Under the pieces are notes generated by a model. The model was not told where the DNA came from. It did not search any database and saw only the letters and a list, made by a program, of their open reading frames with translations. The position numbers were made by a program, and so were the translations under genes. A stretch of 64,000 bases of DNA from assembly GCA_017509565.1 (NCBI GenBank), contig JAFWPM010000115.1:8401-72400 (forward strand). Reading direction: 5' to 3'. Shown piece by piece: positions 22,807-60,659 of the stretch; position 1 is the first letter of the stretch, and the number at the start of each line of letters is the position of its first letter. This DNA is from Kiritimatiellia bacterium. Its GTDB lineage: Bacteria; Verrucomicrobiota; Kiritimatiellia; RFP12; JAAYLN01.

Positions 22807-22859
22807 GCCACAAAGGACACAGAGTTCCCAAAGTCTGTGTGTTCCTTTGTGTTCTCTGG
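22807..22859. repeat. palindromic RPE-like element, intergenic copy E1
   Basis: GCCACAAAGGACACAGAGTTCCCAAAGTCTGTGTGTTCCTTTGTGTTCTCTGG. Its arms are imperfectly complementary (G:T wobble-compatible) and homologous to the in-ORF copies at 35246, 57470 and 59090. Confidence 0.6.
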
Positions 22860-22916
22860 GGCTGCAAAATGGATATTGGCAACATTCAGAAAGGTTGAAA
22901 GGTCAGAGACGGAAGG

Positions 22917-25339
22917 TCATCGTGTTCCGTCCACAAGGACGGAAAGGTTCTGCCCGCGCAGGTAGCGGATGGAGATGTCGTGGCCACGCCAACGGAGATT
23001 GTCAAGGACGAACCAGTCCCACGCCGGATCGGCGAGCGGATCGACGCGGTAGCCGCCCTCGCCGTCTGGGACGAAGCCGCAGAGGCCCGTGACAACGAGG
23101 TCGCAGAAGGAGGAGTGGTTGTAGTCCTTGCCGCGTTCGCGCGGGAAGCGCGCCCGCATCTCCGGGTCGGAACGCATGATGGTCCGCGAAATCCAGTCGG
23201 GCTTGTCGGGGTTGAGGTTTTCGTCGATCCACGGCACGACGGTCCAGCCGTCGTCGCGGTCGCGCGTCCGCTTCTGCTGCGCGGCATACTGCCACATCAG
23301 GAAATCGAAGGCCCGCCGCCCCTCTTCGGACGGATGCGCGTGGAGGTCGTTGGCAAAGGCCGTCAGGGCGATGGAGGTCGCAAAGGGCCAGCTGGGGCCG
23401 TTCCACTGGCATTCGTGCCCCTCGTATGCGATTTTGAAGCCGGGGGCGCGGCGCTCCGGGAAGGTGAGACCGTATTTCGCGGCGAAGCCCTGCGGGTCGG
23501 AGAGCTGCGACCAGTCCGGTGCCACACCGACGGGAACGCCGAAATACCACGGCGCGTAGCCGTGCAGTTCGCGAACGGGATTCAGCGTCCCGTCGCAGCC
23601 TCGCGTCGAGAAAAAGCTCGTTCCAGTGTTCCAGCACTTCTCCATCAGCGCCTTGCGGACGCCCTCCGCCTTGGCCTCGAACTCGTCGGCGAGCGCGTCG
23701 CGGCCCGCTCGGCGCGCGACGGCGGCGATGCACCGAGACTCGCTCCACATGGCGCTGTTCATGAGCGGCTTCCACCCGTTTCCGCCAAGGGAGTATTCGG
23801 TGCCTTCGCGGGAATCGACGGAAAGGAAGCCGCCCGCGCCGTCGCCACCCATGCGGCCGGTGTCTTGCGCAGGCCAAAGCGAAATGCCGTCAAAGCCCTC
23901 CTCCCAGCGGCGGTAGTAGCGGACGGCGTCGTCGAGAAGCCGGACGGGAAGCTCGTCGAGGCCATGCGCTTCGGCGAACTGGCAGCAACCCGTGAAGAGC
24001 CAGCTCGAATATCGCCAGCGATGCTCCGACTGGGGGCCGGCGAGCCAGAAGCGGGCATGGTCCGCAAGATATCTCGGGTCGCGCAGCCAGCGTCCTTCGC
24101 GGAAGTGGTGGCCCGCCGGGCAGACGATTGTGTTGTCCGCACCGCTCCACGAGACCTTGGGCAGGAACTCCGTGACGCGCCACCCGCCGTCCGCGCCCCG
24201 GCGCAGATGCTTGCGGTAGGTCCACCAGCGGAAATAATACGTCCGCTCGATGTCCTTGTCGGGGCAGGCGAAGCGCGGGACGTTCTCCAGCATCCACGCC
24301 TCCGCATCGGCGTTCGGGATCGCGTTCGCGTAGAGTTCCTCGTCCATCGCGTTGAAGCGCCGGACGTAGTCGCGCAGAATCTTTTCCGTGTCGGGCAGGC
24401 GCGCGGGCGACGCTTCTAGGTCGAGTCCGCCGTGGACGGCGCAGCCGACGTATTCGGGGAAGCCGCTGCGGCCGTTGTAGTAGAGGAGCCAGCGGTCGTT
24501 CGCCTCGTCGCGCACGGCGGAGGGCTTGTAGGTCGCGCTGCCGTCCCACGTGCCGAGGTCCGGGGCCACGATGGGGTTCTGGTGAATGCGCCGCCAGCCC
24601 GTCACGCCGTCCTCCGACACGGCCGCGCCGATGCGCGCCGTGTCGATGTCCGAGTAGCCGATGTAGAACATCGCGAAGCGCCCGTCGGGAAGGGGATGCA
24701 CCTCGCAGCCGCCCACGCGGTCGCGGTCCCACGAGTCGCGCGGGCCGTGCGCGAAGACGGGGTTGCCCTCGAACTTGCGCCATTCGAGGCCGTCGGCCGA
24801 CTCCGCGTAGCAGATGACGTTCGGCTCGTAGGTCTCGCCGGCGGCGTACCACATCCGCCAGACATTACGCTCCGCGTCCCAGCGGACGTAGGGATTCATC
24901 ACGGAGAGCTTTTCGCAGTCGGACTCTGGCACCAGAACGGGTTCGCGCCGGACGCGCGCGAAGCGTACGCCGTCTTGGCTTGTCGCGTAGCCGATGCTCG
25001 ACATGCCGCCCGCCTGGCCGGTGTACCACAGGTGCCACACGCCGTCGCGGAAGACGGTGCAGCTGCGGTTGATGTTGTCCTCCCAGCCGCTCGCGGGATC
25101 GGCCTCCAGGCAGACTTCGGGCTCCTGCGACCAGTGGAGGCCGTCGCCGCTGCGGACGAGGGCGATTGCCTTGCGCGGCCGCCAGGAGAAATACATCGTC
25201 CAAGGCGCAGGGCCGTCGCGCACCACGTTTACGTCGAAGCACGTGCCGAGGCGCTCGCCGCCCAAAATCGGGTTTCCTTCGAACTTCGTCCAGAGGCCGG
25301 CGATCGGGCCGGTCCCCTTTTCCATTTCATTGTTCATTC
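22917..25339 (-). CDS. two-domain glycoside hydrolase: N-terminal GH130/GH43-like five-bladed beta-propeller plus C-terminal (alpha/alpha)6 barrel (GH63/MGH1-like)
   Basis: N-terminal FEGNPILGG...WTMYF...WHLWY...FEGNPVF...FAMFYIGYS blades. C-terminal RWWTYRKH...GHECQWNGPSWPFATS six-hairpin-like. Start at MNNEMEKG (about 25339). Confidence 0.6.
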
Positions 25340-26100
25340 TTTGCTTGCCACTCTTGGAGGATGGTCCGCCAGCGGGCCTTGTCAGCGTCGCTTGCGAAGG
25401 GGGCGTGGAACCAGTCCGTTCGGCCAAGCCGGCGGTTCTTGTCCTCGCCCATCGGATGGTAGGGCTCGATGTCAATGCGGACGATGCCGGGCGTCGTCTC
25501 GGACAGACGCCGGATATGGCGTAGCGCCTCGTTCGAGTCGTTCACGCCCGGAACGAGCGGGCACCGCAGGACGACCGATGCTCCGCGCGAGGAGAGAAAG
25601 GCGAGATTGTCGAGGATCGGTTCGGCGGGACACCCCACGAGCTTTTCATGGAGGGATGGCGGCGCCTTGACGTCCCAGAGCCACAAGTTGACGAGAGGCA
25701 GCAGCGCCTCGATGCGTTCGCGCGGCGCATAACCCGATGTCTCGACCGCCGTATGGATGCTCTCCGTCTTCGCGGCGGCGAGAAGCGCGCGTGTGAACTC
25801 GAAGTGCGCCAGCGGTTCGCCGCCGCTGATGGTGAGCCCGCCGCCTGAATTGTCGTAGAAGGCCTTGTCCTTGCGGACGCTTGCCATGACCTCCTCGACG
25901 GTCATGGCTTTGCCGACGATTTCCGGTGGCCCTCCGTTCTCGCCTGCCATCGTCTCCTGCTCGAAGGACTGCGATTCCGGGTTGTGGCACCAGAGGCAAC
26001 GCAACGGGCAGCCTTTCAGAAAAACGACCGTCCGGATTCCCGGCCCGTCGTGGACCGCGAACTTCTCGATGTCGAAGACGATGGCAATTTCGTCGCTCAC
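25327..26100 (-). CDS. glycyl-radical enzyme activating protein (radical SAM, PflA-type)
   Basis: VFLKGCPLRCLWCHNPES (CxxxCxxC), a glycine-rich SAM motif, and a second Cys-rich stretch. GTG start 26098-26100 overlaps the glycyl-radical enzyme stop (GTGA). Confidence 0.85.
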   Translation of the reverse strand: MSDEIAIVFDIEKFAVHDGPGIRTVVFLKGCPLRCLWCHNPESQSFEQETMAGENGGPPEIVGKAMTVEEVMASVRKDKAFYDNSGGGLTISGGEPLAHFEFTRALLAAAKTESIHTAVETSGYAPRERIEALLPLVNLWLWDVKAPPSLHEKLVGCPAEPILDNLAFLSSRGASVVLRCPLVPGVNDSNEALRHIRRLSETTPGIVRIDIEPYHPMGEDKNRRLGRTDWFHAPFASDADKARWRTILQEWQAKNEQ

Positions 26101-29172: not shown

Positions 29173-31335
29173 CTAGTGCTTTTCAAGTTCATAAAACAGC
29201 GTCGCCGCATCCGGGTCGTAGTCCGTGCGGGCCGTGAAGACGAGCCGCCCGGTCGCAGGATCGCGTTCGACCGGAATTTCGCCAAGGCGGAGTCCGGCGG
29301 TGTTGAGGCGCCACGCCCTCCAGTCGCCGTCCGCAGTAGCAAGAGCGATTTCCGCCGCGCCGTTGCGTGCGAGGTGGGGAAGTCCGCCCCAGTCTTCGAG
29401 AATCGTCAGTTCCGGGTCGCGGTAGCGGACGCCGCTGTTCTGCACGTCGGTAAGGTGCGTGACAAGGATGCGCGAAGATTCGGGAAGGGGCTGGCCGTCG
29501 AGCGACGAGGCCCAGACCGTGGCGGGGGTGGCGGCGAGCGCGAACCGCAGCGCCCCGGCGTCATGCGCGCCGGATTCCGCAAAGCCGCCCGCCGTGCGGG
29601 GGGTGTCGATGAGGAAGGTGCCCGCGTTCTGGTCGATGCGGATCGCGCCGTGGGCTTTCTCCTTGGCGCCAAGCGCGGCCAGGTCGGCCCCGGCCTGCCT
29701 TGAAGTGGTGGAGAGCGTGGCGTGGGGAACACGGACGACGGGGGACGCCCACGAACCCCCGGCGGACACCACCGTCCCCACCTTCGCGTGCCAGCCCGTC
29801 CACAAGAGGGCGGGAAGTTCGCACTTGGGCGCGCCCGTGCGCGGGTCGCGCAGCGCAGACACGTCGAGGACAAGCGGATATTCGGCATCAAGCTCTGGAA
29901 GGTCGCGACGGAGGAAGAGGCAGAGGGCGGCGCGTTCGGAGGCGAGGCCGAGCGGGTCGGCGTTCAGGTTGAAGTAGTCCATCCGCCCGCCTGGCTCCTC
30001 CACGCCTTGGCGGTCGTGGCTCCATGCGAAGCGCCACATGCCGTCCCAGCCCTGAAGCGCGCCGAGCGCGCCCGTCACGATCCCCCCGCAGCCCCGGAAG
30101 CGACCGGGGCCGCTGAAGTTCCACTCCGTAAGGCAGAAGGGCTTGTCCATGAGCCGCCGCCACTCGACATCCCGGCCTCCGGCGCCATAGCCCGCGATCG
30201 GGTTCCTGTTCGGGCAGCTGCTCGGAAGCGACCACTGTTTTTCCAGAAACATAGGGTGATCGACGTAGAAATGGTCGTCCACGAAGTCGAAGTGCGTCCG
30301 CGACAGCTGATACTGCACCGGGTTGTACCACGACGAGAGGTTCGACACCGGGGCGCGGCAGCCGCACTTCTCGCGAACGAACGCCTTGAGGCGCTCGAAA
30401 AGCATCGTCTCGCGCTCGGCGAGGAACATCGCCACCGCACCCGCGCGCCGCCCCTCCGGTGTGTCTCCGGTCGCCTTGAGATCGTCGGGAATTTCGTGGG
30501 GGATTTCGGCGAAGGCGGCATTGCCCGCCTTCGCCGAAATCCACTCTTCCCACGCCTCCCGCACGCATGGGTGGGCGCGAAGCGCGGCGCCGCCCCAGTT
30601 GCCGAGGTTGCCCTCGTTGACGAACGAGAGCGTCGCGAGGGCCGGTTCCCCGGCGAGGCTGCGCCCCGTGCGCGGGTTCACGTGGCACAGGAAATTCTCC
30701 GTCCAGGCGCAGAGGTTCGAGAAGGCCGGTTCCCAGAACGCGCAGAGGATCTTGTAGGTGGCCGCGTTCCCGACGACGCCGTCGCGGTCGATGCCGATGG
30801 CGCGCCACGGCGTGGAATACGAGCGCGAGACGAAGAGATCGGTCGTGAGATAGACGCCCCGCTCGACGCACGCGGCGACGAGGTTGTCTAACTTCTCCCA
30901 CTGCTCCGGCGTCGGCGTGACGTCGTCCTGCCCCGGATAATGCCAGCCGTTGTCCACGATGAGGAAACGCTCGTGGTGGTGGATGCGGAGCGCGTTGTAG
31001 CCCATGCGGACGAGGTTGGCGACGAAGCGGTCAGCCGCCTCGCGCGACGAGGGGAGGTTCGCCTCGTTGCAGAGGTTGACGCCGTAGAAGCGTTGCGGGA
31101 CGCCCGGAATCCCCTCGAACTCAAAGTGGTCGCCGACGGCGATGACCCGTCCGAACTTGCCTGCCGGAGCATGGCGAGGCAGTGCCTCCGTGAAGTCAAG
31201 CGCCGAACCCGGCTCGATCCACGGGTCGAAACGGAGCGGAATCCAGTCCGCCCCGGCCTCGATGGTTATGGGTTCGGCAACGACATTGACGCAAAGGCCG
31301 CAGAGAACAGCGCAAAGGGATGCGGCAAGTTTCAT
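29173..31335 (-). CDS. secreted glycoside hydrolase, TIM-barrel (GH5/GH-A-like), family uncertain
   Basis: Signal peptide MKLAASLCAVLCGLCVNVVA. RFYGVNLCNEANLP and CLTEWNFSGP fit the GH-A-type NEx/TE pattern. Confidence 0.55.
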   Translation of the reverse strand: MKLAASLCAVLCGLCVNVVAEPITIEAGADWIPLRFDPWIEPGSALDFTEALPRHAPAGKFGRVIAVGDHFEFEGIPGVPQRFYGVNLCNEANLPSSREAADRFVANLVRMGYNALRIHHHERFLIVDNGWHYPGQDDVTPTPEQWEKLDNLVAACVERGVYLTTDLFVSRSYSTPWRAIGIDRDGVVGNAATYKILCAFWEPAFSNLCAWTENFLCHVNPRTGRSLAGEPALATLSFVNEGNLGNWGGAALRAHPCVREAWEEWISAKAGNAAFAEIPHEIPDDLKATGDTPEGRRAGAVAMFLAERETMLFERLKAFVREKCGCRAPVSNLSSWYNPVQYQLSRTHFDFVDDHFYVDHPMFLEKQWSLPSSCPNRNPIAGYGAGGRDVEWRRLMDKPFCLTEWNFSGPGRFRGCGGIVTGALGALQGWDGMWRFAWSHDRQGVEEPGGRMDYFNLNADPLGLASERAALCLFLRRDLPELDAEYPLVLDVSALRDPRTGAPKCELPALLWTGWHAKVGTVVSAGGSWASPVVRVPHATLSTTSRQAGADLAALGAKEKAHGAIRIDQNAGTFLIDTPRTAGGFAESGAHDAGALRFALAATPATVWASSLDGQPLPESSRILVTHLTDVQNSGVRYRDPELTILEDWGGLPHLARNGAAEIALATADGDWRAWRLNTAGLRLGEIPVERDPATGRLVFTARTDYDPDAATLFYELEKH

Positions 31336-32948
31336 CGCATGATGACGGTTGTCGCCTTGGGCTTCGTCAGCACTGTCGCGCCGGGTTGCTTCACGAGGCT
31401 GGCGCACGCGAACTCGACCGCGCTGGCGTCAAGCGTCGCGCCAGATGCCACCGTCACGATGCCGTAGGTCGCCGTGTCGCCGGCCAACGTGACCGTGCCC
31501 CCGGCGACCATGAGGTCGCAGGCGTTGGACAGCGCGGCCCCGGACACCGTAAGCGTGCCCGTTCCGGTCTTGACGATATTGACGTGCTCGCCGATCGCGA
31601 CGGTAAACGCAGCGTCGGCGTCGCCATAGCCGAGCGTCAGCGTCGAAACGGTGGCCGCGCTGTTCGAGACAATGCCTGCGCCGGTTGCGCCGGAGAACTC
31701 GGCATCGAATCCGTTCAGATCGAGAAAAGCCCCCTCCGCCACCGTCAGGAGTCCGCGTCCCGGCTTGAACTCGGAATCTGTCACGAGTACGTCTCCGCCG
31801 AGGATGGCGGTCGGCCCCGTGTAGTCGCAGGCGGAGTGTTGCGTAAGTCGATTGAAACGAAGGGTTCCGGCGCCACGCTTCGTAAAGCCGCCGTCGCCGG
31901 TGATGTTGATCTCGCGGTTGCCGGTGCTGCCGCCGCAGAGGGCGCGGTCGACGGCGTTCGACACGTCGATGGGATTTCCGTTGATTCCGACGACCGTCAT
32001 CTTCGGTTCAAAGATGGCGTTGCTCGTACGGCCTCGTCCGCGGACGTAGAAAAGCGGCAGCGACGCGGATTCGCCCGAAGTGTAGGGAACATACGAGCCG
32101 CCATCGAAGCAGATCCGGGAAGAGCCGGCTCCGAAATGCTGGATGCAGTTTGCGCGTAGCCATCCGTTCGACCCCAGGACAACTTCGGCAGTGTCGCTGG
32201 CATTCTCGGCTTGGAAAAGCATCGTGAACGCCCTGCCGTTGTCGAGGTTTGTCCCGCCCGCCGACACGGTGGCGTTCGTGACGCCCAGAAACATCGAAAG
32301 AGGAAAATCGAGCTGCTCGGACTGATAACCAAGGCGCAGCCCCTGAACGCCTGTCAACGAAGCTCTGTCGATCACGGAACCCGAAAACGGCGACACATTC
32401 GCGCCTAGGGCCATGTACACGCTGTCCTCCGTTGTCAACTGCCCGCCGTCATGGAGAGACAGCGTTTTGATTGCCGTGGCACCGTTGCCTACTCCCCAAC
32501 CGGCATTGTAGGCGATTCGGATTGCCGCGCCCCTGCCGATGTCCAAGCTGTCGCAGGAGATGGCTCCTCTGTTTGCGTACAGCCAGCTTGTCGCATTGAC
32601 GCCTTCGGCATTGAAGAACTTCAGCGGAACTCGCATGAAAGATGCCGGATTGGCATTGTTCTTGGCTTCAGACGGGAGATTGTTGATTGAGATGGAATAG
32701 CCGCGTCCAATCAGTTGGAATGGGTTGCTGACCGAAACGGAAGAATCGTATTTGAACATTCCCCCGAAGGTGATGCCGGCGCTGGAGGGGCCATACATCC
32801 TGTCGGCGTAGTAGCCATTCATGGACGTGAGGTCGATCGTGGTTGAATTGCCGACACTCGAGTTGAGTTCGTAGACGGACTGCGCCGATGCGGATATTGC
32901 CAGGGAGAGCGCCGCAAGCGGAGCGGCGACGAGTTTTATCGTCTTCAT
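31332..32948 (-). CDS. secreted PATR beta-helix protein with C-terminal ...KPKATTVIMR tail
   Basis: Signal peptide MKTIKLVAAPLAALSLAISASAQ. GTGTLTVSGAALSN...GGTVTLAG repeats. It ends KPKATTVIMR. Confidence 0.7.
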   Translation of the reverse strand: MKTIKLVAAPLAALSLAISASAQSVYELNSSVGNSTTIDLTSMNGYYADRMYGPSSAGITFGGMFKYDSSVSVSNPFQLIGRGYSISINNLPSEAKNNANPASFMRVPLKFFNAEGVNATSWLYANRGAISCDSLDIGRGAAIRIAYNAGWGVGNGATAIKTLSLHDGGQLTTEDSVYMALGANVSPFSGSVIDRASLTGVQGLRLGYQSEQLDFPLSMFLGVTNATVSAGGTNLDNGRAFTMLFQAENASDTAEVVLGSNGWLRANCIQHFGAGSSRICFDGGSYVPYTSGESASLPLFYVRGRGRTSNAIFEPKMTVVGINGNPIDVSNAVDRALCGGSTGNREINITGDGGFTKRGAGTLRFNRLTQHSACDYTGPTAILGGDVLVTDSEFKPGRGLLTVAEGAFLDLNGFDAEFSGATGAGIVSNSAATVSTLTLGYGDADAAFTVAIGEHVNIVKTGTGTLTVSGAALSNACDLMVAGGTVTLAGDTATYGIVTVASGATLDASAVEFACASLVKQPGATVLTKPKATTVIMR

Positions 32949-34794: not shown

Positions 34795-36057
34795 TCACGG
34801 ATGCCAGTTGCGCTTGCGCCACTCGCCCATGGACATCCCGGTGCGTTTTTTGAAGAGCCAGTGCAGCGCGATGTGGGAGCGGAACCCGCAGAAGTCGGCA
34901 ATGGCGCCAATGGGTGTGTCCGTGCGGGAGAGGAGCGTGAAGACCTTTTCGAGTCTGACGTGCAGGATCTCCTTCAGCGCCGAATGCCCCACGGCCTCGC
35001 GGAAGCGAAGGTCGAAGAGCGGACGCGAGCAGCGGAAGCGCTGCGCGAGTTTAGCGACCGTGAGTCCCTCGCAGGCCTCGCGTCGTATGGTCTCCATGGC
35101 TTCCAGGACGAACGGTTCACGCCGCCCGAAACCGCCTGTCGATTCCCGCCGCACGGCAAGCAAAGGCTTGACGAGAATTTCCGCGCCCCGAGTCTCGATG
35201 GAGGTTTTTTTGACAGGATTTAAAAGATTGACAGAATTTTTGTCAGCCACAGAGGACACAGAGTTCACATAGCCTTTGTGCTTCTTTGTGTTCTTTGTGG
35301 CTAAAACATCCCCAATGGCCTTTGCCGCCAGATACCCGGCCAGTTCGTGGTCGATCTGAATGCTGGAAAGCGTCGGGTGTGATGCCTCGCAGAGCACCGG
35401 GTTGCTGTCCACGCCGAGCAGCGTCAGGTCGCGCGGGATGGAGCGGTGGCAGCTCCTGGCCGCGGCGGCGGTTTCCACCGCTGCAAGATCCCCCACCGCA
35501 AAAATGGCGGTGTGGTGCGGAAGGGCGGCGAGCCACCGCGCAAGTCGCGCCTCGCGGAGCTCCTTCGCCTCGTTGCGCCATGGAAGGCGGGAAAACGGCT
35601 TGCCGGACGCGGCGGCAAGCGCGGCGAAGGCCCGCTCGCGCCGGAGCGACCAGCCCCTCCTTCCCGTCGGCCAGGCGAACGGCACTACCGCAAACGCCTC
35701 GGGCAAACCGGCGGAGAGCTCCCGGAAGGCCGCTTCGGCGATGGCCGCGTCGTCGTAGCCCACCCGTACGCCGCGCCCGCCGTAAAGGGTGGGTTCCGCA
35801 TGCATGTAGACAACCGGCACCTCGCCAAAGAGCCTCGGCGGAAGGTCGCGGCGGCCGCAGGAGCAGTCCACGACGCATCCGGCCACGGGCTTGTGCGCGG
35901 CCAGCAGATCGTGGATGGCGTCCGGACGCGACTTTTCTGGCGGCACGACAACAACGTTCCATCGCAGGCTGTCTGCGCATCGCCGCATTCCGGCAAGACT
36001 CGCCGCCTGCATGCGTCCACCCATGCTGGCATCAAGATAGAGTATTGTCGCGCTCAC
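34795..36057 (-). CDS. XylR-type regulator (PBP-I sugar-binding domain plus AraC HTH) carrying an in-frame RPE-like insertion
   Basis: PBP-like N-terminal (ILYLDASMGG...AIFAVGDLAAV...LLGVDSN). C-terminal AraC HTH (LAQRFRCSRPLFDLRFREAVGHSALK). A low-complexity insert ATKNTKKHKGYVNSVSSVADKNSVNLLNPVKKTSI is encoded by repeat E2. Probable GTG start at 36055-36057. Confidence 0.75.
   Translation of the reverse strand: MSATILYLDASMGGRMQAASLAGMRRCADSLRWNVVVVPPEKSRPDAIHDLLAAHKPVAGCVVDCSCGRRDLPPRLFGEVPVVYMHAEPTLYGGRGVRVGYDDAAIAEAAFRELSAGLPEAFAVVPFAWPTGRRGWSLRRERAFAALAAASGKPFSRLPWRNEAKELREARLARWLAALPHHTAIFAVGDLAAVETAAAARSCHRSIPRDLTLLGVDSNPVLCEASHPTLSSIQIDHELAGYLAAKAIGDVLATKNTKKHKGYVNSVSSVADKNSVNLLNPVKKTSIETRGAEILVKPLLAVRRESTGGFGRREPFVLEAMETIRREACEGLTVAKLAQRFRCSRPLFDLRFREAVGHSALKEILHVRLEKVFTLLSRTDTPIGAIADFCGFRSHIALHWLFKKRTGMSMGEWRKRNWHP
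35199..35303. repeat. palindromic RPE-like element, copy E2, in-frame inside the regulator gene (105 nt, 35 codons)
   Basis: Hairpin core GCCACAGAGGACACAGAG-TTCACATAGC-CTTTGTGCTTCTTTGTGTTCTTTGTGGC (35246-35301). It is preceded by TTTTTTTGACAGGATTTAAAAGATTGACAGAATTTTTGTCA, which shares motifs with the island-flank arrays. Confidence 0.7.
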
Positions 36058-36183: not shown

Positions 36184-36213
36184 TGTCAATAGATTGTGTG
36201 TCCCTTTATGCAC
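36184..36213. repeat. 30-bp dispersed repeat, copy R2 (TGTCAATAGATTGTGTGTCCCTTTATGCAC)
   Basis: Identical to R3, in direct orientation 200 bp away. Confidence 0.7.
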
Positions 36214-36269
36214 TGCCTGACTTATTTCTCATTTGGAATCTCTGGGCGCAGGAGTTTTGGACAGGATTT

Positions 36270-36330
36270 TGACAGAATTGGCAGGATTTTTTGGAACAGC
36301 AATCCTGTGAATCCTGTCAAACCCCCACAC
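36270..36330. repeat. array of GACAGGATT / TGACAGAATT / AATCCTGTC motifs (left flank of the AT-rich island)
   Basis: GGACAGGATTTTGACAGAATTGGCAGGATTTTTTGGAACAGCAATCCTGTGAATCCTGTCAAAC, with nested inverted symmetry. It is related to 38826-38895 and to the left part of E2. Confidence 0.55.
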
Positions 36331-36383: not shown

Positions 36384-36413
36384 TGTCAATAGATTGTGTG
36401 TCCCTTTATGCAC
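36384..36413. repeat. 30-bp dispersed repeat, copy R3
   Basis: TGTCAATAGATTGTGTGTCCCTTTATGCAC. Its reverse complement supplies the codons ..KGHTIY-stop of the truncated transposase ORF. Confidence 0.7.
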
Positions 36414-36562
36414 ACTTCACAGCACTCAGGGCATACCGCCGCCTTCTTCGCGTATTCGACGAAGATGTCAACACGCCTCCCCTCCACGTCGAGTTCAACT
36501 TTTGAAACCTCACATTCCTCGCCAACACCAAGCAGAACCGAATAATGCTCGTTCACATCCAT
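36386..36562 (-). mobile_element. ISL3-family transposase, N-terminal zinc-finger fragment (58 aa, truncated at repeat R3)
   Basis: MDVNEHYSVLLGVGEECEVSKVELDVEGRRVDIFVEYAKKAAVCPECCEVCIKGHTIY matches the ISL3 zf N-terminus pattern (LLGL..V..VE......I.V......CP.CG......G). The remaining ~350 aa are absent. Confidence 0.5.
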
Positions 36563-36867
36563 GACTTCATTACCTCTTCCTCTCTATCATAGCATTTCCA
36601 AGCCTCTTTTGCCGTCACCTCTGGCACTAACTTTGGCCTCCCTTCCACAAAAAAATTGGAAGAACCATGAATATAGGCATTAGTTGGCCAATTTGCTCCA
36701 GGACAATATGTTGTTGGGGTAGATGTAAGCATGGAATCTATCTGCCTGGCAATGCCATCAACATCAATTTCACCATTGAAGCACCTTATTCTAAAACCTG
36801 CGTTACCGCGCGAGAAATACAATGATGCCCCAACATGCTTTGCTGCTTCTGCAGAAATGTTTTGCAC
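36553..36867 (-). CDS. hypothetical protein (AT-rich island)
   Basis: 104-aa ORF in AT-rich DNA with no recognisable motif. Its stop overlaps the start of the transposase fragment. Confidence 0.35.
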   Translation of the reverse strand: MQNISAEAAKHVGASLYFSRGNAGFRIRCFNGEIDVDGIARQIDSMLTSTPTTYCPGANWPTNAYIHGSSNFFVEGRPKLVPEVTAKEAWKCYDREEEVMKSWM

Positions 36868-37002
36868 AAGGCAGAAATCCCCTATTCCAACGTATGCCTT
36901 ATATAATGGATAGCAGAGCGTCTATTGGCGCTGAACACATTACTAAATCTTTCAGTAGAGCATATCTTGCTTTTTCCGCATCTTTTGCGAATAAGATGCT
37001 AA

Positions 37003-37308
37003 TTACAGCGTTTTTTCAGTGCCTTTAATGTGTAAATCCTCAACAATGCAAATATCTTTGCCGTCTTCAAGAGGTGAAAAATCGGCATCAGGGAAAAGAG
37101 TCAAAAGCTTTTGGATAATATCTTCCTTTGTGAAATAATCGCACGGATCGTCAAACCTAAAGCTTGCTCTTACGCAATAGTAATCAACCCTCCGCATCAA
37201 CACTTCGTCCATATTACTAGTCCTAAAACCCACCGCTTCAGAAGAAATGCTTGTGGTGGGGCTAAACATAAGTAAAAGAATTGAGGAAATGCTTGGTATA
37301 TATTTCAT
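37003..37308 (-). CDS. hypothetical small secreted protein (AT-rich island)
   Basis: Start MKYIPSISSILLLMFSPTTSISSEA (signal-peptide-like). About 100 aa, AT-rich codons. Confidence 0.4.
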   Translation of the reverse strand: MKYIPSISSILLLMFSPTTSISSEAVGFRTSNMDEVLMRRVDYYCVRASFRFDDPCDYFTKEDIIQKLLTLFPDADFSPLEDGKDICIVEDLHIKGTEKTL

Positions 37309-37325
37309 GGATCGCTCCTCCAAAA

Positions 37326-38645: not shown

Positions 38646-38825
38646 CATGTCCGCCCAGACCTTTATCCGCGAGCCGCCGATTAAGGGGCCGCGGCGTCTG
38701 CCATGCCGGCAGGCGCCGCAAGAGCGACAAACCAATGTTTGAAAGCAGTCATGCGCGAGACTCCCTCCGCAGGGTTTTCAGTCGCCGCCTATTCTACCAG
38801 AACAAAGCCCGCCATGCAAGGGGAC

Positions 38826-38895
38826 GGAGGTTGTCAGGACAGGATTAACAGGATGGACAGGATTCTAGAGACCACAATCTTGTTAATCCTGTCAA
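38826..38895. repeat. array of GACAGGATT-type motifs (right flank of the AT-rich island)
   Basis: TGTCAGGACAGGATTAACAGGATGGACAGGATTCTAGAGACCACAATCTTGTTAATCCTGTCAAAAAAA. A 12-bp perfect inverted repeat GACAGGATTAAC / GTTAATCCTGTC. It ends AATCCTGTCAAA like the left flank. Confidence 0.55.
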
Positions 38896-54615: not shown

Positions 54616-55375
54616 ATTCATCCAATCGAAATGCGTGAAATGCGGGCGCTGCGCCCAGGTGTGCCCTTGCGGCGTAATCGGGATGAAGGACGGCCAAATG
54701 GCCGCAATACGGGAAAAGAACTGCATGGGCTGCCGACACTGCTTCGGAGTCTGCCCTGCCGGGGCCATTGTTTTCGATGGCGAAATCCCGGTCCCGGCAT
54801 CGGCGGCGAAACTTCCGGATCCTGAGGAGGTGCTCGCGCTCATGGAGCGCCGCTACTCCTGCCGCGAATACAAAAACGAGCCGATTTCACCGGACAAACT
54901 CGCGATGCTGCGCCGCGTGCTTGACTGCTCGCCGACAGGCTGCAACAGCCGTGGCTGCAAATATGCGATACTTGCGACGCCAGAGGAAACTGGCAAGTTC
55001 CGCGATGAGCTATACGAGCGGCTTGCGGCGCTGCCGCCCGACGTGGTGAAGGCCGACGCCACATTGCGGACCCTGGCAATCATGCGCCGCCGCGGTGGCG
55101 ACCCGATTCTGCGCGGCGCGCCCGGCGTAGTTGTCGCGTGCTACGAGGCGACGGCGGCTACCGGATACGTTGACGCCGTGATAGGCCTGTCGAAATTCGA
55201 GACGATGGCCCAGGCCCTTGGCCTCGGGACTTGCTGGTGCGGGTTCCTCGCGAACTCAAGCGGGACGCTATGGCCAGGGCTCCCGGCTGAACTGGGGCTG
55301 GGCGCCAACCTGACAACCGCGTACGCCATGCTATTCGGGGAGAAGGCCTTCGGGTACGCGCGGCCGTGCCGCTAG
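54605..55375 (+). CDS. ferredoxin (2x[4Fe-4S]) fused to a nitroreductase-family domain
   Basis: CVKCGRCAQVCPC and CMGCRHCFGVCPAGA clusters, then a nitroreductase-like region (RRYSCREYKNEPI...). Ribosome-binding site AAGGA 7 nt before ATG 54605. Confidence 0.7.
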   Translation: MAIEFIQSKCVKCGRCAQVCPCGVIGMKDGQMAAIREKNCMGCRHCFGVCPAGAIVFDGEIPVPASAAKLPDPEEVLALMERRYSCREYKNEPISPDKLAMLRRVLDCSPTGCNSRGCKYAILATPEETGKFRDELYERLAALPPDVVKADATLRTLAIMRRRGGDPILRGAPGVVVACYEATAATGYVDAVIGLSKFETMAQALGLGTCWCGFLANSSGTLWPGLPAELGLGANLTTAYAMLFGEKAFGYARPCR

Positions 55376-55429
55376 CGGCCGCGCATAAGGGGACAGACAA
55401 TATGTCGGGAGGCAGGTAAAACAAAGAAT

Positions 55430-55486
55430 GAGATAAGATGTCTGTCCCTTTATGCACACTGTCAATAAGATGTCTGTCCCTTTGTG
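55430..55486. repeat. two tandem copies (R4 partial, R5) of the 30-bp dispersed repeat
   Basis: GATAAGATGTCTGTCCCTTTATGCACAC then TGTCAATAAGATGTCTGTCCCTTTGTGGAT. R5 overlaps and provides the GH78 stop codon. The upstream GGGACAGACA (55390-55400) is complementary to TGTCTGTCCC. Confidence 0.65.
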
Positions 55487-58080
55487 GATATGGCATGAAT
55501 GCCGGGACCGAATTCGCGGGGCGGGAGGCCGGGGGCGATCACGGTTGCTGATGTGCCGCGCGGGATTGTGAAGCGCCATGTCCAGGTTGCGCCGCCATCG
55601 CCATAGCGCCAGGCGCTTTCGATTTCGCCACATGGCGAGCGGTGGCGCGCCGTTACGTGGCCGACGCGCCGGTCCGGCAGCGGCGCAAGGATGAAGTGGC
55701 GGAATCCCGGGTTCCCCGGATCCTCGCGTATCCCAGCCATGTGCGACATCATCCACGCGAAGACCGCGCCGTATGCGTAGTGGTTCAGCGAATTGCCGCC
55801 CGCCCCGGGATGGAGTCCGCGTTCGCGGCTGTAGGCGTCCCAGCGCTCCCAGACCGTGGTCGCGCCCTGCACGACTGGGGACAGCCAGGACGGGCATTCG
55901 CGCTGCAACAGCAGCGAGTAGGCGAGGTCGGGCGCGGCGGCTTCATCTGAGAGGACGTCAAGAATCATCGATGTGCCAAGAAAGCCGGTCTGGAGTCGGC
56001 ATCCGTGGGCGCGGATGTTTTCAAGCAGGGCGTCGCGCGTGGCGTGGGCCGGAGCCGGGTCGAGAAGGCGGAGGCGGAGCGCGAAGAGCGCCGGAGTCTG
56101 CATGCCGCGGAATGGACGGAGGAGGAGACCGTCTGCGGGATCCACGAAGTTTTCGCGGATGTACGCGAGCGCGCGGGTGGCCATGTCGGAGTATTTGCGG
56201 GGCGCAGTGGCCCCGCGCCACGAGACTGGGGGCGCGGGGGCCACGCATGGAGATGCTTGGGGCGCAGAGGCCCGTGCCATCTCCGCCATCATGCGCGCGT
56301 CCATGAGCCAGTGGCAACACCCGAGATAGCGCCACAGGAGCAGGGCGTCCGGTTTAACCGGCGGGACGTTTTTCACCCCGCCGACATAGGCGCGTCCGCT
56401 GCATGTCTCCAGCGCTTCGAACGAAAGCCAGTCGGCCCACTGGTGTTCCAGGGCCTGCGGCGAGGCGAACTTCATGTTGTCCACAAGCGCGACATACCGC
56501 TCCATGGCGTCCCAGTTCTCCTCGACAATGCGACGGTCGCCGAAGTGGCGCCATACGGTGTATGGGACGATTACGCCGGCGTCGGCCCATCCGAACTGGT
56601 GCTCGTTCGCGCCGACGCGGCCCGGCGGCGCGACGCCCGGGAATCCGCCGTCGGGGTTCTGGCTGTCGCGCATGTCGCGCATCCACTTGCGCAGGAAGTC
56701 CCGGACATCGGCGTTGTAGCAGGCGGCCTTGGCGAACACCTGCGTGTCGGCCGTCCAGCCAAGGCGCTCCGCGCGCTGGGGGCAGTCAGTCGGGATCGAG
56801 AGGTAGTTCGAGCGCTGGCTCCATAGGATGTTCGAGACAAGGCGGTTCAGCTCCGGGACGCCGGTTTCGAGATGCGCGGTCTCGGCGTCGGCGTGGATGG
56901 ACGACACGGGGATCCAGCGGACACGGCGTATTTCCACCGGGCCGTCGGCGGCGACGGAGAGGTAGCGGCCCCCGAAGTACGTGAACGACGGGCGGTGGCG
57001 CTCCTCTCCGGCGCCGGCGAAGGTGTAGCGCAGCAGCGAGCGGGCGCCGAGGTAGTTGGAGGTGTAGGCGGAGCCTTCCGGGCCGTCGCAGCCGCGCGAC
57101 TTCGCGCCGTTGCCGTCGTTGAGCAGTTCGGCGGGCCGCGCGGAGAGGGTGGTGCCACGCTGCGCCGAGAAGACGAACTCCGGCACCGCCGCGCAGTTCT
57201 GCCCGAAGTCGAGGACGAGCGTTTCGCCGGGGATTATTGCAATCGGCTGCAATCGGCTGCAATCGAACACAGTCGTTTTTACTACCGTGCCGAAGTGGCC
57301 GGCGTCGGCGCCCGTGACGCCGCGCCAGGCGTAGGCCGCGACGGGGGCCATCGCGAGGTCGTGGCGCAGCGCGACGCAGGGCCCCTCCATCGGGACGATG
57401 GCGCCGGAGAACTCGGTGTTTTCGACGGCTGGCGAAAATGATTTTCCAACGCGGAGACGCAGAGACGCGGAGTCCGCAAGAACCTTGTGCCTCTTTGTGT
57501 TCTTTGTGGCCAAAGATTCCCTCCATGACGGGGCAAGCCGCGCGTCGTAGTCCTCGCCGTCGTAGATGCCGGCGCGCAGCACGGGGCCGGCGGCGCCGGA
57601 GGCGAGCCAGGTGGCGTCGGTGCCGACGCGCGTCTCGGTGCCGTCGGGGTGGCGCAGTACGAGGACGGCGCGGAATGCCGAGCGCTTGCCGCGGAAGAGG
57701 ACGACGCGGTCGCGCCACCACCCTGAGGAGACGTATGCGCCGAAGCGGTTTTCCTCGCCTGCGCCGGTGCGGATGAGGCGCGTGATGTCGTAGCGGAAGG
57801 CGTGGCGGGTCTTGGCGAAGTGCGTGTAGCCGGGCTTGAGGAAGTCGTCCGCGCCGACTTCGGCGCCGTTCGCGAAGGCGCGGAAGACGCCGAGGCCGGT
57901 CATGTTCCAAAAGGCCCCGGCGACGGGCTTCCCGTTGCGCACCGTCTTTTCGAACCAGGCGGTGCCGTCCTCGGGCTCGCGCTTGCCGGCGTAGGGGTCT
58001 TCGTCAGGACTGCGCACGGGCGAATCCGCCGCGCTTATCCAGATGGAGCCGTCGAAGTCGGAGTGGCGTGGGCTTTTCAT
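55462..58080 (-). CDS. alpha-L-rhamnosidase (GH78) with an in-frame RPE-like insertion and repeat-derived C-terminus
   Basis: IPTDCPQRAERLGWTADTQVFAKAA is the GH78 signature, and the protein is 872 aa. The insert LATKNTKRHKVLADSASLRLRVGKSFSP is encoded by E3. The last six codons plus stop (KGQTSY) come from repeat R5. The ATG overlaps the upstream TGA (ATGA). Confidence 0.85.
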   Translation of the reverse strand: MKSPRHSDFDGSIWISAADSPVRSPDEDPYAGKREPEDGTAWFEKTVRNGKPVAGAFWNMTGLGVFRAFANGAEVGADDFLKPGYTHFAKTRHAFRYDITRLIRTGAGEENRFGAYVSSGWWRDRVVLFRGKRSAFRAVLVLRHPDGTETRVGTDATWLASGAAGPVLRAGIYDGEDYDARLAPSWRESLATKNTKRHKVLADSASLRLRVGKSFSPAVENTEFSGAIVPMEGPCVALRHDLAMAPVAAYAWRGVTGADAGHFGTVVKTTVFDCSRLQPIAIIPGETLVLDFGQNCAAVPEFVFSAQRGTTLSARPAELLNDGNGAKSRGCDGPEGSAYTSNYLGARSLLRYTFAGAGEERHRPSFTYFGGRYLSVAADGPVEIRRVRWIPVSSIHADAETAHLETGVPELNRLVSNILWSQRSNYLSIPTDCPQRAERLGWTADTQVFAKAACYNADVRDFLRKWMRDMRDSQNPDGGFPGVAPPGRVGANEHQFGWADAGVIVPYTVWRHFGDRRIVEENWDAMERYVALVDNMKFASPQALEHQWADWLSFEALETCSGRAYVGGVKNVPPVKPDALLLWRYLGCCHWLMDARMMAEMARASAPQASPCVAPAPPVSWRGATAPRKYSDMATRALAYIRENFVDPADGLLLRPFRGMQTPALFALRLRLLDPAPAHATRDALLENIRAHGCRLQTGFLGTSMILDVLSDEAAAPDLAYSLLLQRECPSWLSPVVQGATTVWERWDAYSRERGLHPGAGGNSLNHYAYGAVFAWMMSHMAGIREDPGNPGFRHFILAPLPDRRVGHVTARHRSPCGEIESAWRYGDGGATWTWRFTIPRGTSATVIAPGLPPREFGPGIHAISTKGQTSY
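57431..57511. repeat. palindromic RPE-like element, copy E3, in-frame inside the GH78 gene (81 nt, 27 codons)
   Basis: CCAACGCGGAGACGCAGAGACGCGGAGTCCGCAAGAACCTTGTGCCTCTTTGTGTTCTTTGTGGCC. The right arm is identical to E2 (CTTTGTGTTCTTTGTGGC). Confidence 0.7.
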
Positions 58081-60659
58081 TTGAGGATGGCAAGGTCCTT
58101 CACAAAGAGCGAGCAGCGCGTCCCGCGCGGGTTCGCGCCGATGCGGATCGCCCTGACGGCAGCGGTGTCAAGTCCGGGCGGGAGGAAGACGCGGCGCCGC
58201 TCCCACGCCCCGGTCGGGGCGTCGTATGGGATGAAGACATCGGGGCGGCCGTCGCCATAAACGAGCATCACGTACTGCGACTTGAAGTCGTTCTCCACCT
58301 TGTCCTGCTCGCTGCGGATGTCGAACTCGATGCGCCGTGCGCCGGCCAGGCTTTCGCCGGGCGCGAGATCGCGGACAGGGTACATCCAGCGGTCGGATGC
58401 GGCGCTCTCCCAGGACGCGTCGAAGCGGATGGCGTCGCCGGAGACGGAGATTCCCTGCGCGTCGCCGGAGGAGTTGCGGCGCCAGAGCGCCGGGTCGCCC
58501 CACGGCAGCCCCACCCGCTCGCATGTGGCGACGAAGTCCTTCTCGAAGAGGAGGTTCATCGCGAGGCGGGAGACCGGGCGGCCGCCGAAGGCGCCGGAGA
58601 GGACGAGGGCGGAATCCGGCGGCGTTTCCGCCGCCGCGCCGGACTCCCGGCTGACTTCGCAGTCGAAGACCGCGGGGCCCTCGGTGTATGGCGGCACCGC
58701 GAAAGGCGCGGCGGGGAGGCCGGAGACGGCCGCGCCGGAGGCTTCGACGACGCCCGTCTTCACGGAGTCGGAGAAGTTCCAGACCTCGATTGCGGCGCGG
58801 CCGGCGTCGCCCTTCACAACGGCGATGGTCTTGCGGCCTGAAATCTCGAAGTCCTCGCGGCTTGGCCGGATGCGCAGGACGATGGAGAGATCCTGAACGG
58901 ACGGCGCCGCCTCGGCAAAACCGGCATTGGAACGGGGGACGATTGCCGGCTCAAGCCCGCCGAGGCCCGAGAGGAAGGAGGGGAAGCGCGTGGCCGGGAG
59001 GGCGAGCGCGCCGTTGGCGTCAGGCGCCACCGTTGAGACGCCGCCGCACATGTCCACGAGGCGGAACGTTTCCTCACGCGGAGTCGCAGAGGCGCAGGGA
59101 TTTTTTGCCTCGCCCTGTGCCTCTGTGCCTCTGTGTGACATTCCTGGAACGGCAAACCGCCACTCACGCGCGTAGTCGGGTTCGGCGGGGACGACGCCGT
59201 CGCGGGCCGTGTCCACGGGCGATTCGCTCCAGAAGGCGACGGTCTGCGAGCCGTCGGGCTGCGCGTAGAGGAACGCGCGGATGCCGGTCGGCGCGTCGAG
59301 CGCGCCGAGAAGGCGCGCGGAGCCGAGCTCGCGGTTCATCGTGGCGAGCGCGGAGAATACCGGCTTCACGGTGCCGTCGCGGCGGATGACGCCCCAGTCC
59401 TTGCGGCCGCCGCGCTCGTCGTAGGCGCCGAAGACGAAGAAGAAGGACCGCTCCACGCCCTCCATCTGGAAGGATATCTGCGCCTTGGCGCAGCATTCGG
59501 CCTGGATCAGCTCCTGATCCGGCGAGTGGGCCTTGCGCCCCTCCATGACGCCGTCCTTTTCCGGCAGGCCCTCAAGCTCCGTGCCGAATTCCGTGACCCA
59601 GACGGGCTTGTTGGCCGCGCCGGCGGCGGCGAGCTTTTCGCGCACCAGGCGGAACGTCCCGGCATGCTTCGAGACGGGGACGTAGGTGTGGTAGTTGAAG
59701 ACGTCAAAGTAGTCGGCCGCGCCGTTCGCGAGGAGGGCGTCATGGTATGGCGAACTCTGCGGCGGCAGGCTCAGCGCGCCGTTCAGCACGGTGACGCCGG
59801 GATTGCCGGCCCTGAAGCCAAGCGCGGCGACCTTAAACGCGGCGGCATAGTCCCAGACCGGCTCCGGCGCGAAGGCGAGATCCGGCTCGTTCCAGAACTC
59901 CCAGTCGTCCATGCAGTCGCCAAAAGCCGCGGCGGCGCTCCGGCAGAATTCGTAGAGGGCGGGGATGTCGGTGGGGAGGCGTCCGGCAGGGAGCGCCCAG
60001 GCGGGGGAGTCGTGGAACATCCCGGAGACGCCGATGCCGAGGGCTCGGAGCATTTGCGCGTTGGCGAGGTAGCGGCCGAAGTCGGGCGGCGCGTCGCCGG
60101 AGGGCTGGACATGGCGCCAATGGAGGCGGTCGCGCACATGGCGGAAGCCGGCCAGGCTCAGCAGGCCGGCGACGGTGCGCTCCGTGTCGCCGCCGTTCCA
60201 CGGGCAGAGGAAGGCGCCGCGCCGGGAGATAGAGGAAAGGGCCGTGTCGGCGGCGAAAGGCCCCCCCTCCGCCCCCCTGCCGGGGGGGACGTGCGCGCTC
60301 GCAGAGCGCGCACCTTCACTGAGGCTTGCAAGAGTGGCGAGGATTTCATTGCCGTTGTCCGCTTGCTGCTTTCCGATCATCCGCCAGTAGCCGGCGGGGA
60401 GGGGCGGGAGGGTGGCGCGGCCGTCGGCGTCAAAGGCGCCGGAGAGGCCGGTGTCGCGGCCGCGCCAGTCAACGATGCGCCATGCGGCGCCAGGCTCGCC
60501 GCCACTTGCCGAGACCGCCGCGCCCTCGGAGGCGGCGTGGCCGGGGGCGTCAAGGACGACACCAATGGGAGGGCCGGCCTCTGTGCCGGCCGCAGAGGCC
60601 GCTACGGAGCGCAGCCCTCCCGCCGCCACAAGCGCCAGGCACAATGCAAGCCGCTTCAT
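58077..60659 (-). CDS. secreted glycoside hydrolase (GH-A clan TIM barrel, GH5/GH39-like) with in-frame RPE-like insertion
   Basis: Signal peptide MKRLALCLALVAAGGLRSVAASAA. DDWEFWNEPD and KPVWVTEFG (acid/base and nucleophile-type motifs). The insert SHRGTEAQGEAKNPCASATP is encoded by E4. Confidence 0.65.
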   Translation of the reverse strand: MKRLALCLALVAAGGLRSVAASAAGTEAGPPIGVVLDAPGHAASEGAAVSASGGEPGAAWRIVDWRGRDTGLSGAFDADGRATLPPLPAGYWRMIGKQQADNGNEILATLASLSEGARSASAHVPPGRGAEGGPFAADTALSSISRRGAFLCPWNGGDTERTVAGLLSLAGFRHVRDRLHWRHVQPSGDAPPDFGRYLANAQMLRALGIGVSGMFHDSPAWALPAGRLPTDIPALYEFCRSAAAAFGDCMDDWEFWNEPDLAFAPEPVWDYAAAFKVAALGFRAGNPGVTVLNGALSLPPQSSPYHDALLANGAADYFDVFNYHTYVPVSKHAGTFRLVREKLAAAGAANKPVWVTEFGTELEGLPEKDGVMEGRKAHSPDQELIQAECCAKAQISFQMEGVERSFFFVFGAYDERGGRKDWGVIRRDGTVKPVFSALATMNRELGSARLLGALDAPTGIRAFLYAQPDGSQTVAFWSESPVDTARDGVVPAEPDYAREWRFAVPGMSHRGTEAQGEAKNPCASATPREETFRLVDMCGGVSTVAPDANGALALPATRFPSFLSGLGGLEPAIVPRSNAGFAEAAPSVQDLSIVLRIRPSREDFEISGRKTIAVVKGDAGRAAIEVWNFSDSVKTGVVEASGAAVSGLPAAPFAVPPYTEGPAVFDCEVSRESGAAAETPPDSALVLSGAFGGRPVSRLAMNLLFEKDFVATCERVGLPWGDPALWRRNSSGDAQGISVSGDAIRFDASWESAASDRWMYPVRDLAPGESLAGARRIEFDIRSEQDKVENDFKSQYVMLVYGDGRPDVFIPYDAPTGAWERRRVFLPPGLDTAAVRAIRIGANPRGTRCSLFVKDLAILK
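59079..59138. repeat. palindromic RPE-like element, copy E4, in-frame inside the hydrolase gene (60 nt, 20 codons)
   Basis: CGCGGAGTCGCAGAGGCGCAGGGATTTTTTGCCTCGCCCTGTGCCTCTGTGCCTCTGTGTGAC. The left arm is homologous to E3, and the arms are complementary. Confidence 0.65.

Follow-up and report, generated by a model that had tools for sequence, protein, structure and literature searches.

The 64,000-nt stretch of the Kiritimatiellia contig JAFWPM010000115.1 analyzed here (i.e., the window) contains 64% G+C, and its genes encode glycoside hydrolases (GH42, GH28, BNR, GH78, and MGH1-like), glycosyltransferases and housekeeping proteins, whose homologs in public records are named Kiritimatiellae. 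The subject of this study is a set of short palindromic elements in the window, E1 to E4, one of which is intergenic while the other three are situated inside open reading frames (ORFs). A first-pass annotation had reported four related elements, and all of them were found where it had placed them:

22807..22862, intergenic: E1 hairpin, with arms GCCACAAAGGACACAGAG and CTTTGTGTTCTCTGGGGC
35246..35308, minus strand: E2 hairpin, 63 nt (21 codons), in the linker of an AraC/XylR-type regulator
57450..57510, minus strand: E3 insertion, in a variable loop of a GH78 rhamnosidase
59074..59138, minus strand: E4 insertion, in a loop of an 860-aa protein, with arms of 8-nt CACAGAGG units

When up to three mismatches were allowed, the arm CTTTGTGTTCTTTGTGGC matched the window five times and its partner arm GCCACAGAGGACACAGAG also five times, where 0.02 and 0.03 matches were expected, respectively. 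Each arm is a tandem array of units whose core is CRCRRAG in one arm and the complementary CTYYGYG in the other. Units of 9 nt (i.e., xxCACAGAG or xxCACAAAG) make up E1, E2, and, on the sense strand, the first arm of E3, and units of 8 nt (CGCGGAGA, CACAGAGG) make up the remaining arm of E3 and the two arms of E4. The proposal that the four elements are homologous copies is upheld for their common arms, which occur far above chance, but the second arm of E3 and the arms of E4 are more distant relatives that have only the CRCRRAG core in common with the others.

The sense strand of E2 reads TGTTTTA-GCCACAAAG AACACAAAG AAGCACAAAGG-loop-CTCTGTGTC CTCTGTGGC and encodes VLATKNTKKHKGYVNSVSSVA. In E3, the first and second sense-strand arms are GCCACAAAGAACACAAAGAGGCACAAGG (9-nt units) and CTCCGCGTCTCTGCGTCTCCGCG (8-nt units), and the encoded peptide is LATKNTKRHKVLADSASLRLRV, while that of E4 is MSHRGTEAQGEAKNPCASATPRE. 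The copies in the window start with GCCACA or TCACGCGG. A common peptide start, ATKNTK(K/R)HK, had been ascribed to all three genic copies; it is present in E2 and E3, but E4 reads SHRGTEAQ. The first arms of E2 and E3 are identical at 27/29 aligned bases, although their host genes are unrelated. Strong hairpins are formed by E2 and E4, with z-scores of −7.8 and −7.4, respectively (−7.35 for the plus strand of E4). The intergenic E1 lies 55 nt 3′ of the stop codon of the ORF at 22917-25475 and, relative to the AAA-ATPase/PDDEXK_9 gene, ~130 nt 5′ of its likely ATG.

As had been noticed from the sequence, the genic copies contain no stop codon in the host frame: the minus-strand ORFs at 34795-36057, 55462-58080, and 58077-60659 stay open across E2, E3, and E4, respectively. 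The regulator provides the clearest record of insertion. Its linker between the Peripla_BP_3 domain and the helix-turn-helix (HTH) domain is 13–18 aa long in 18 of the 42 aligned orthologs (i.e., empty) and 50 aa long here, and the DNA alignment shows three states: empty (P0123), with a 45-nt repeat of GACAGGATT units (P0125), and with a further 63 nt, which consist of TGTTTTA followed by the CACAAAG hairpin (the window and P0122). This three-state alignment shows two successive in-frame insertions, of 45 nt and then of 63 nt. Among the related loci, E2 is missing from L124 and L125 and found in L126. The region 35199-35303, previously described as one element, is thus two, the 63-nt CACAAAG hairpin E2 (35246-35308) and a 45-nt half-copy of another family:

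35199..35245 (approximate start), minus strand: half-copy, ~45 nt, of the 9-nt GACAGGATT-unit family, adjoining E2 in the regulator linker

This half-copy encodes DKNSVNLLNPVKKTS and is older than E2, because the ortholog P0125 has the half-copy alone. In the AlphaFold2 model of the regulator, a predicted local distance difference test score (pLDDT) below 50 is confined to residues 258–290, which are the insert and lie between a confident helix and confident strands.

The other two host proteins show the same pattern. In the GH78 rhamnosidase, the segment between DGEDYDAR and AIENTEF is 15–24 aa long in most of 20 orthologs and 41 aa long here, and in some orthologs other repeat-like peptides occupy the position of E3. 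The AlphaFold model of this protein is weaker (mean pLDDT of 71), and the insert scores below 50, as do several other segments. The 860-aa protein has no Pfam match. Of its 19 aligned homologs, 18 have 14–20 aa in the loop that contains E4, compared with 37 aa here; none of the 19 has the segment GMSHRGTEAQGEAKNPCASATPREE, and in one homolog this loop is occupied by another large insert. These alignments, the check that had been suggested for the host proteins, show that all three genic copies are true lineage-specific insertions in variable loops or linkers of intact genes. That their lengths are multiples of three, to which the first-pass annotation attached weight, reflects the kept frames but is not informative, as it is automatic for an insertion in a gene that is still intact.

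Metagenome-derived data and the long spurious ORFs that occur in GC-rich DNA raise the question of whether the host ORFs are pseudogenes or misassemblies that are read through by accident. We regard this as highly improbable, as both sides of the inserts align in one frame and over the full length with conserved orthologs, the G+C content at third codon positions (GC3) is 0.76–0.87 across the host ORFs, and identical insert-bearing proteins are found in several independent metagenome assemblies. The sequence of E3 is likewise unchanged in a 98%-identical strain and in independent assemblies. Peptides such as HKGYVNSVSSVADK, an example of a tryptic peptide, would span an insert junction.

The elements of the window are members of a much larger family. 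When one genome per species was scanned with GCCACARAGRACACARAG, at least 120 loci were identified, which represent 12 phyla or more and at which the same 18-mer forms hairpins. Among the matches listed are loci of Planctomycetota, Acidobacteriota, Chloroflexota, Beta- and Gammaproteobacteria, Desulfobacterota, Verrucomicrobiota, Kiritimatiellae, Ignavibacteria, Nitrospirales, Cyanobacteria, and Aminicenantes, some of them in cultured isolates. The pattern is also found in at least 108 contigs of IMG/VR, a Lys-type variant is present in metagenomes with many matches listed (also a lower bound), and BLAST against annotated plasmids revealed copies, without annotation, on Gemmatirosa megaplasmids. 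The typical form consists of an A-rich flank, TTA, GCCACAGAG GACACAGAG xxCACAGAG, a variable loop, CTCTGTGxx CTCTGTGTC CTCTGTGGC, TAA and a T-rich flank, and the flank consensus over 123 copies is AAAAA-TTA, GCC..GGC, TAA-TTTTT. The loop sequence is unique to each copy. In a census of 123–124 well-paired hairpins, the median length was 80 nt (range 46–146) and the stems were 18–36 bp long.

The usual habitat of these hairpins is just downstream of genes, a position that is typical of repetitive extragenic palindromic (REP) sequences and of terminators. For the 55 hairpins with both neighbors called, the neighboring genes were co-directional in 22 + 15 cases, convergent in 16 and divergent in 2, so that a gene 3′ end was present on at least one side of 53/55 hairpins, at a median distance of 24 nt from the stop codon. 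The family is T-rich at +4 to +8 and A-rich at −8 to −4, at ~24 nt after stops, while the copies in the window have no T-run and were not picked up by a terminator scan of the window. No Rfam family matched the window at the gathering score, and none matched the elements at E-values of up to 10; nor was there an Rfam match on the hairpins of nine hairpin loci. The Acido-Lenti-1 matches that Rfam gave in one of these loci (L049) are at other positions than the hairpin and represent an unrelated hairpin. Literature searches with arm sequences, derived peptides and keywords returned only general reviews and no description of the family, which, given the incomplete coverage of such searches, is absence of evidence only. 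The repeat family is real, is found in at least 12 phyla and is apparently undescribed.

Given these results, we consider it likely that E1 to E4 represent copies of a hairpin (foldback) repeat that is dispersed and non-autonomous, with arms of tandem 8–9-nt units and an unconserved loop. The copies would arrive by insertion from elsewhere, and selection would filter the survivors. Copies are also found inside genes, and the genic copies that persist keep the frame, contain no stop codon and are situated in loops or interdomain linkers tolerant of extra residues. The first, purine-rich arm adds polar residues (Lys, Thr, Asn, His, and Glu) and the second arm Ser, Val, Ala, Cys, and Leu, with a disordered loop as the outcome.

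Genic copies are present elsewhere as well. By a conservative coding test, 12 of 125 metagenomic copies are genic. Their hosts include:

L240: short-chain dehydrogenase (SDR), whose Pfam domain is split by the insert
L349, 1966-4404: CarB (carbamoyl-phosphate synthase large subunit), with two separate in-frame hairpin inserts, LATKNTKTTKSINDGEALCDLCGKKK and LATKNTKSTENTDDEKGQCDLCGKE
L298 and the Kiritimatiellae locus L012: GT4 glycosyltransferases (Pfam), with inserts in the same loop
Other hosts by Pfam: a type I restriction-modification (R-M) specificity subunit, a FabH-like enzyme and an ABC ATPase

A design of the element that preserves the reading frame is not indicated. The lengths of 123 copies modulo 3 (0/1/2) are distributed as 38/36/49, with no bias toward multiples of three, so that the enrichment of frame-preserving lengths, one of the points on which the first-pass annotation had staked its proposal, is absent. 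Furthermore, variants with 8-nt units exist, and E2 contains stop codons in two of its three sense frames; the idea was therefore rejected. Only two entry frames have been seen among the genic copies, L-ATKNTK and F/G-SHKEHK, and the usual leader TTTTAGCC contains TAG in the third frame. The flat lengths together with the restricted frames suggest that the in-frame genic copies are survivors of selection.

The loops and linkers that contain E2 to E4 have been occupied more than once and by more than one repeat family. In the orthologs, the corresponding linker or loop holds other hairpin-derived peptides, such as SHKGTETQRNK..SLCDSVALC, SHGDTETRRN..LRVSVPPC, AAKNAEKRNG, NPVNLVNPV, and IGNC..LPIV. 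The NPVN-type peptides are the translation of the GACAGGATT-unit family, to which the regulator half-copy and two intergenic hairpins of the window belong:

36268..36321, intergenic: hairpin of the GACAGGATT-unit family (inverted repeat I8)
38838..38893, intergenic: second hairpin of the GACAGGATT-unit family (inverted repeat I17)

The metagenome locus L240 has a CACAAAG hairpin beside an NPVNPV repeat, the same combination as in the regulator gene of the window. The IGNC/LPIV peptides are derived from the TTGCCAAT family and are inserted in the regulator orthologs P0127, P0136, and P0154; for this family, the orthologs P0132, P0127, and P0136 form a nested series of 0, +42, and +147 nt (DNA of L359, L360, and L361, respectively). 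Nesting is also seen in the window, where E1 sits in the loop of a larger palindrome of TTGCCAAT units (22750-22803 and 22876-22887). Either AT-rich patches or existing elements are preferred target sites, or they are the sole places where the elements are tolerated. To judge from these alignments, the repeated occupation of the same loops by different families would be the outcome of a general process and not of a local accident.

The folding of the copies is asymmetric between strands. All four copies in the window fold better on the plus strand, which is antisense to the host genes of E2 to E4: the plus- and minus-strand values are −23.9 and −18.6 kcal/mol for E1, −34.8 and −23.6 kcal/mol for E2, −26.5 and −21.1 kcal/mol for E3, and −46.8 and −31.8 kcal/mol for E4. 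That the arms pair as an RNA hairpin with G:U pairs, as had been claimed, is true of the plus (antisense) strand, whereas the mRNA strand has A·C mismatches where the plus strand has G:U and folds more weakly. The genic copies of L240 (−23.5 sense and −42.1 antisense) and L295 (−11.1 and −35.0) are asymmetric in this way too, and L352 differs in the same direction. In six genic copies, the second arm contributes the C to 32/32 A·C mismatches; non-synonymous changes account for 22 of these and replace would-be Phe, Val, Cys, and Leu codons with Ser, Ala, Arg, and Pro codons, and the other 10 are synonymous and raise the G+C content. Without counting the three of the window, the ORF copies that fold better on one strand favor the antisense strand by 7 to 1, while the intergenic copies are unbiased (18 vs. 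20); the latter result led us to reject, for intergenic copies, the notion that the better-folding strand is the transcribed one.

This asymmetry is better explained by a coding-level change of the second arm than by a functional RNA. In many genic copies, C stands in the second arm in place of the U required for perfect pairing (mostly Phe, Val, and Cys to Ser, Ala, and Arg), which breaks the mRNA hairpin and leaves G:U pairs on the antisense strand only. This pattern would reflect either change after insertion or filtering among variants. The antisense G:U helix would then be a by-product, because the second arm, which would otherwise encode a greasy peptide, has been changed or filtered for C-rich variants.

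A selected function of the hairpin or peptide in the genes, such as an antisense small RNA, a site for RNase III or translational pausing, or a Lys-rich flexible linker, is improbable in our view. Such a function would be consistent with the very good folding of the antisense strand and with the position of E2, which is precisely where the sensor domain meets the DNA-binding domain. A sigma70-like sequence TTGACA-16 nt-CAGAAT (35210-35237) is located immediately upstream of E2 on the plus strand, inside the GACAGGATT half-element and antisense to the regulator gene; it may drive an antisense transcript or may have arisen by chance in an AT-rich patch, and promoter-like matches are generally enriched in such patches. 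The insert is kept in two regulator lineages with 84% nucleotide identity, and its zero divergence between them was considered as a sign of purifying selection on the hairpin, but this was rejected, as the tract of low divergence around E2 spans ~300 nt and is not specific to the hairpin. Moreover, presence and absence are scattered over the orthologs, the occupying families differ, the peptide is predicted to be disordered, and the second-arm changes break the pairing in the mRNA, although three orthologs have near-perfect hairpins on the mRNA strand.

These orthologs are among several observations that weigh against the interpretation of E1 to E4 as copies of a dispersed repeat whose genic copies are filtered at the coding level. 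Regarding the filtering, the copies in the regulator linkers of P0150, P0174, and P0209 form near-perfect Watson-Crick hairpins on the mRNA strand, and L298, possibly also L106, has the opposite polarity of strand folding. A weakened mRNA hairpin as a rule for genic copies was rejected on account of P0150, P0174, P0209, and L298 and is kept as a tendency. Regarding mobility, neither a transposase, a REP-associated tyrosine transposase (RAYT) nor another mobilizing gene was found among the 40 ORFs of the window, and the 73 neighboring ORFs of 55 hairpins at genome loci comprised 103 Pfam families with no enrichment of transposases and no mobilizing gene. Full-length insertion sequences (IS) with matching terminal repeats were not seen in the loci examined. 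No clean target-site duplication was observed: comparisons of filled and empty sites were ambiguous, 78/123 copies have no flanking direct repeat at all, and a TA duplication of the IS630/mariner type was rejected as a candidate, as TA..TA flanks only 15/123 copies. The left insert flank resembles an inverted copy of the target flank in two comparisons of filled and empty sites. Finally, the copy numbers from the collection scans are lower bounds, the genic share applies to the copies listed, and the ORFs of the census were called by a crude heuristic based on GC3 and length.

The two filled/empty comparisons bear on a local origin of the elements, in which replication slippage of 9-nt units and strand switching (i.e., quasipalindrome formation) would copy the flank in inverted form, and the likeness among copies would reflect a sequence preference of the process. 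The leader of E2, TGTTTTA, matches the A-rich target of P0125 in inverse-complement form, and the same relation holds between the left end of the P0127 insert, ATTGTTCACAA, and the flank TTGTGAACAAT. Because the left insert end is an inverted copy of the flank in these two comparisons, template switching stays as a minority explanation. Arms of tandem short units, loops that differ in every copy, and the lack of both target-site duplications and a transposase are also in keeping with it. We nevertheless judge a local origin to be unlikely. The first arms of E2 and E3 are nearly identical in unrelated genes, the exact 18-mer recurs in at least 12 phyla, several unrelated unit families are found in the same loops, and slippage alone leaves identical units in AT-poor coding DNA unexplained. 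A dispersed repeat that arrives by insertion from elsewhere is the explanation we prefer.

It should be noted that in a Pirellulales metagenome-assembled genome (MAG; L029, 50-1583), three left arms (50-140) and one right arm (1548-1583) enclose a 411-aa ORF that has a HEPN-like RxxxxH motif. This ORF looks like a cargo gene between inverted arms and is HEPN-like rather than a transposase.

The first-pass annotation compared the elements with Rickettsia palindromic elements (RPEs). The comparison is apt as an analogy: RPEs are also palindromic, inserted in frame in unrelated genes, missing from orthologs, compatible with the fold of the host protein, and translated into peptides without known function (PMC10969869; PMC3184786). 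It does not extend to the sense-strand hairpin, as the G:U pairing here is antisense, nor to a frame-length bias, which is lacking, nor to a special lineage. RPEs are ~100–150 bp long, have family-specific conserved peptides and are confined to Rickettsia, whereas the elements described here are 55–65 nt in the window (46–146 nt overall), consist of tandem 8–9-nt units with an unconserved loop, are found in many phyla and are mostly intergenic. The host in this case belongs to Kiritimatiellae and not to Rickettsiales, and only the arm units are common to the copies while loops and peptides vary from copy to copy. The statement that precedents are limited to Rickettsia and a few Neisseria and cyanobacterial elements was too narrow: intragenic GTAG/CGTC REPs are documented (PMC3733652), and in-frame or intragenic copies of BOX/RUP/SPRITE and ERIC are documented as well (PMC3184786; PMC10969869).

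REPs and REPINs are similar to the present family in that they are short hairpins just outside gene 3′ ends, some of them intragenic and sometimes at the same site in homologs, and REPs occur in the PVC group (PMC3733652). In contrast, the present family has no GTAG/CGTC tag (its terminus is TTA followed by GCCACAGAG), its arms are periodic 9-mers, its stems (18–36 bp) are much longer, and no RAYT was found in the window or beside the copies. SPRITE is a terminator-like hairpin repeat that is also biased toward gene 3′ ends, and SPRITE, BOX, and RUP of Streptococcus pneumoniae cluster, insert into one another and in some cases are fused to ORFs (PMC3184786; PMC10969869); their sequences are, however, unrelated to those described here, and they are restricted to a single species, are at least ~100 nt long and have conserved internal sequence. 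MITEs (miniature transposable elements with inverted repeats), such as Correia, Nezha, and Chunjie, are similarly non-autonomous, with inverted-repeat ends, stable hairpins, and filled and empty sites. The elements here are likewise inverted-repeat arms without an ORF, i.e., terminal repeats with no transposase of their own, but target-site duplications, a conserved core and IS carrying matching terminal repeats, all of them features of MITEs, were not found here. The arms also resemble the cyanobacterial short tandemly repeated repetitive (STRR) heptamers and the small dispersed repeats (also abbreviated SDR) of Elhai. Hairpins in Geobacter metallireducens have arms that are inverted repeats of short tandem heptanucleotide units, and they are situated in intergenic regions as well as inside genes (PMC2700814). 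Their units are different, 7 nt long (MTYCTGA and GGGACCG), and have been read as regulator-binding sites (PMC2700814).

The concept of in-frame palindromic insertion is therefore already known, although it has mainly been treated as a Rickettsia phenomenon, and a 2024 review called its occurrence elsewhere in prokaryotes merely conceivable (PMC10969869). What is new is the family itself, with its periodic 8–9-nt arms, very wide range and repeated colonization of the same loops, together with a coding-level account of the G:U asymmetry. By analogy, the elements may be said to behave like RPEs and intragenic REPs and to share the habitat of REPs and SPRITE. The process is seen in an unrelated phylum, in free-living and gut/rumen-type bacteria, and in enzymes as conserved as CarB, and it provides a concrete, testable route from selfish or structural DNA to new protein loops. 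It also accounts for many odd low-complexity segments and spurious hypothetical proteins in metagenome annotations (ATKNTK, HKEHKE, SVSSV, LCVLCG, and NPVNPV) and draws attention to a very widespread 3′-end hairpin family that is missing from Rfam. Much more tentatively, the family could represent a modular hairpin class that spreads across phyla via some trans-acting machinery or arises by a common hairpin-generating mechanism, and that is also a source of new loops in CarB, SDR, GT4, and GH78 proteins and maybe of LCVLCG-type signal-peptide cores.

LCVLCG-type stretches that are derived from the exact arm sequence are found near the N-termini of ORFs in L261 (a BspA-type leucine-rich repeat protein), L290, and L270. 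One further site in the window may be of this kind:

31290..31327, minus strand: possible solo arm of the same unit type (CGCAAAGG CCGCAGAGAA CAGCGCAAAGGG), within the ORF at 29173-31407

The peptide encoded by this candidate, SLCAVLCGLC, is the hydrophobic core in the signal peptide of that ORF (MKLAASLCAVLCGLCVNVVA), and the assignment of the candidate as a solo arm is tentative.

Several other features were observed in the window. In the GH78 ORF, three tandem 10-nt units (GCTGCAATCG) at ~57240-57270 are read in three frames as DCSRLQPIA, and the differences between the window and the 98%-identical strain (L358) cluster at 57267-57289. Adjoining E1, a gene of lower G+C content (21048-22820) encodes AAA-ATPase_like and PDDEXK_9 domains, and a gene of the same family (L126, 437-2074) is located beside the orthologous regulator. 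In the window, L126, and L356, the regulator has ATPase_2 genes on its flanks; these ATPase/nuclease families are multi-copy. A 28-nt repeat, TGTCAATAGATTGTGTGTCCCTTTATGC, is present three times (9801-9828, 36184-36211, and 36384-36411), where 0 copies were expected by chance, and two of the three are upstream of the regulator gene. Its core TGTCTGTCCCTTTATGC is in addition present as an inverted pair (55383-55399 and 55439-55455), and all the copies are intergenic. The region 36494-38546 is an island of low G+C content, down to 26–28% compared to 64% in the window, with a 469-aa ORF (37326-38735, minus strand) and smaller ORFs without Pfam match, and is probably foreign DNA.

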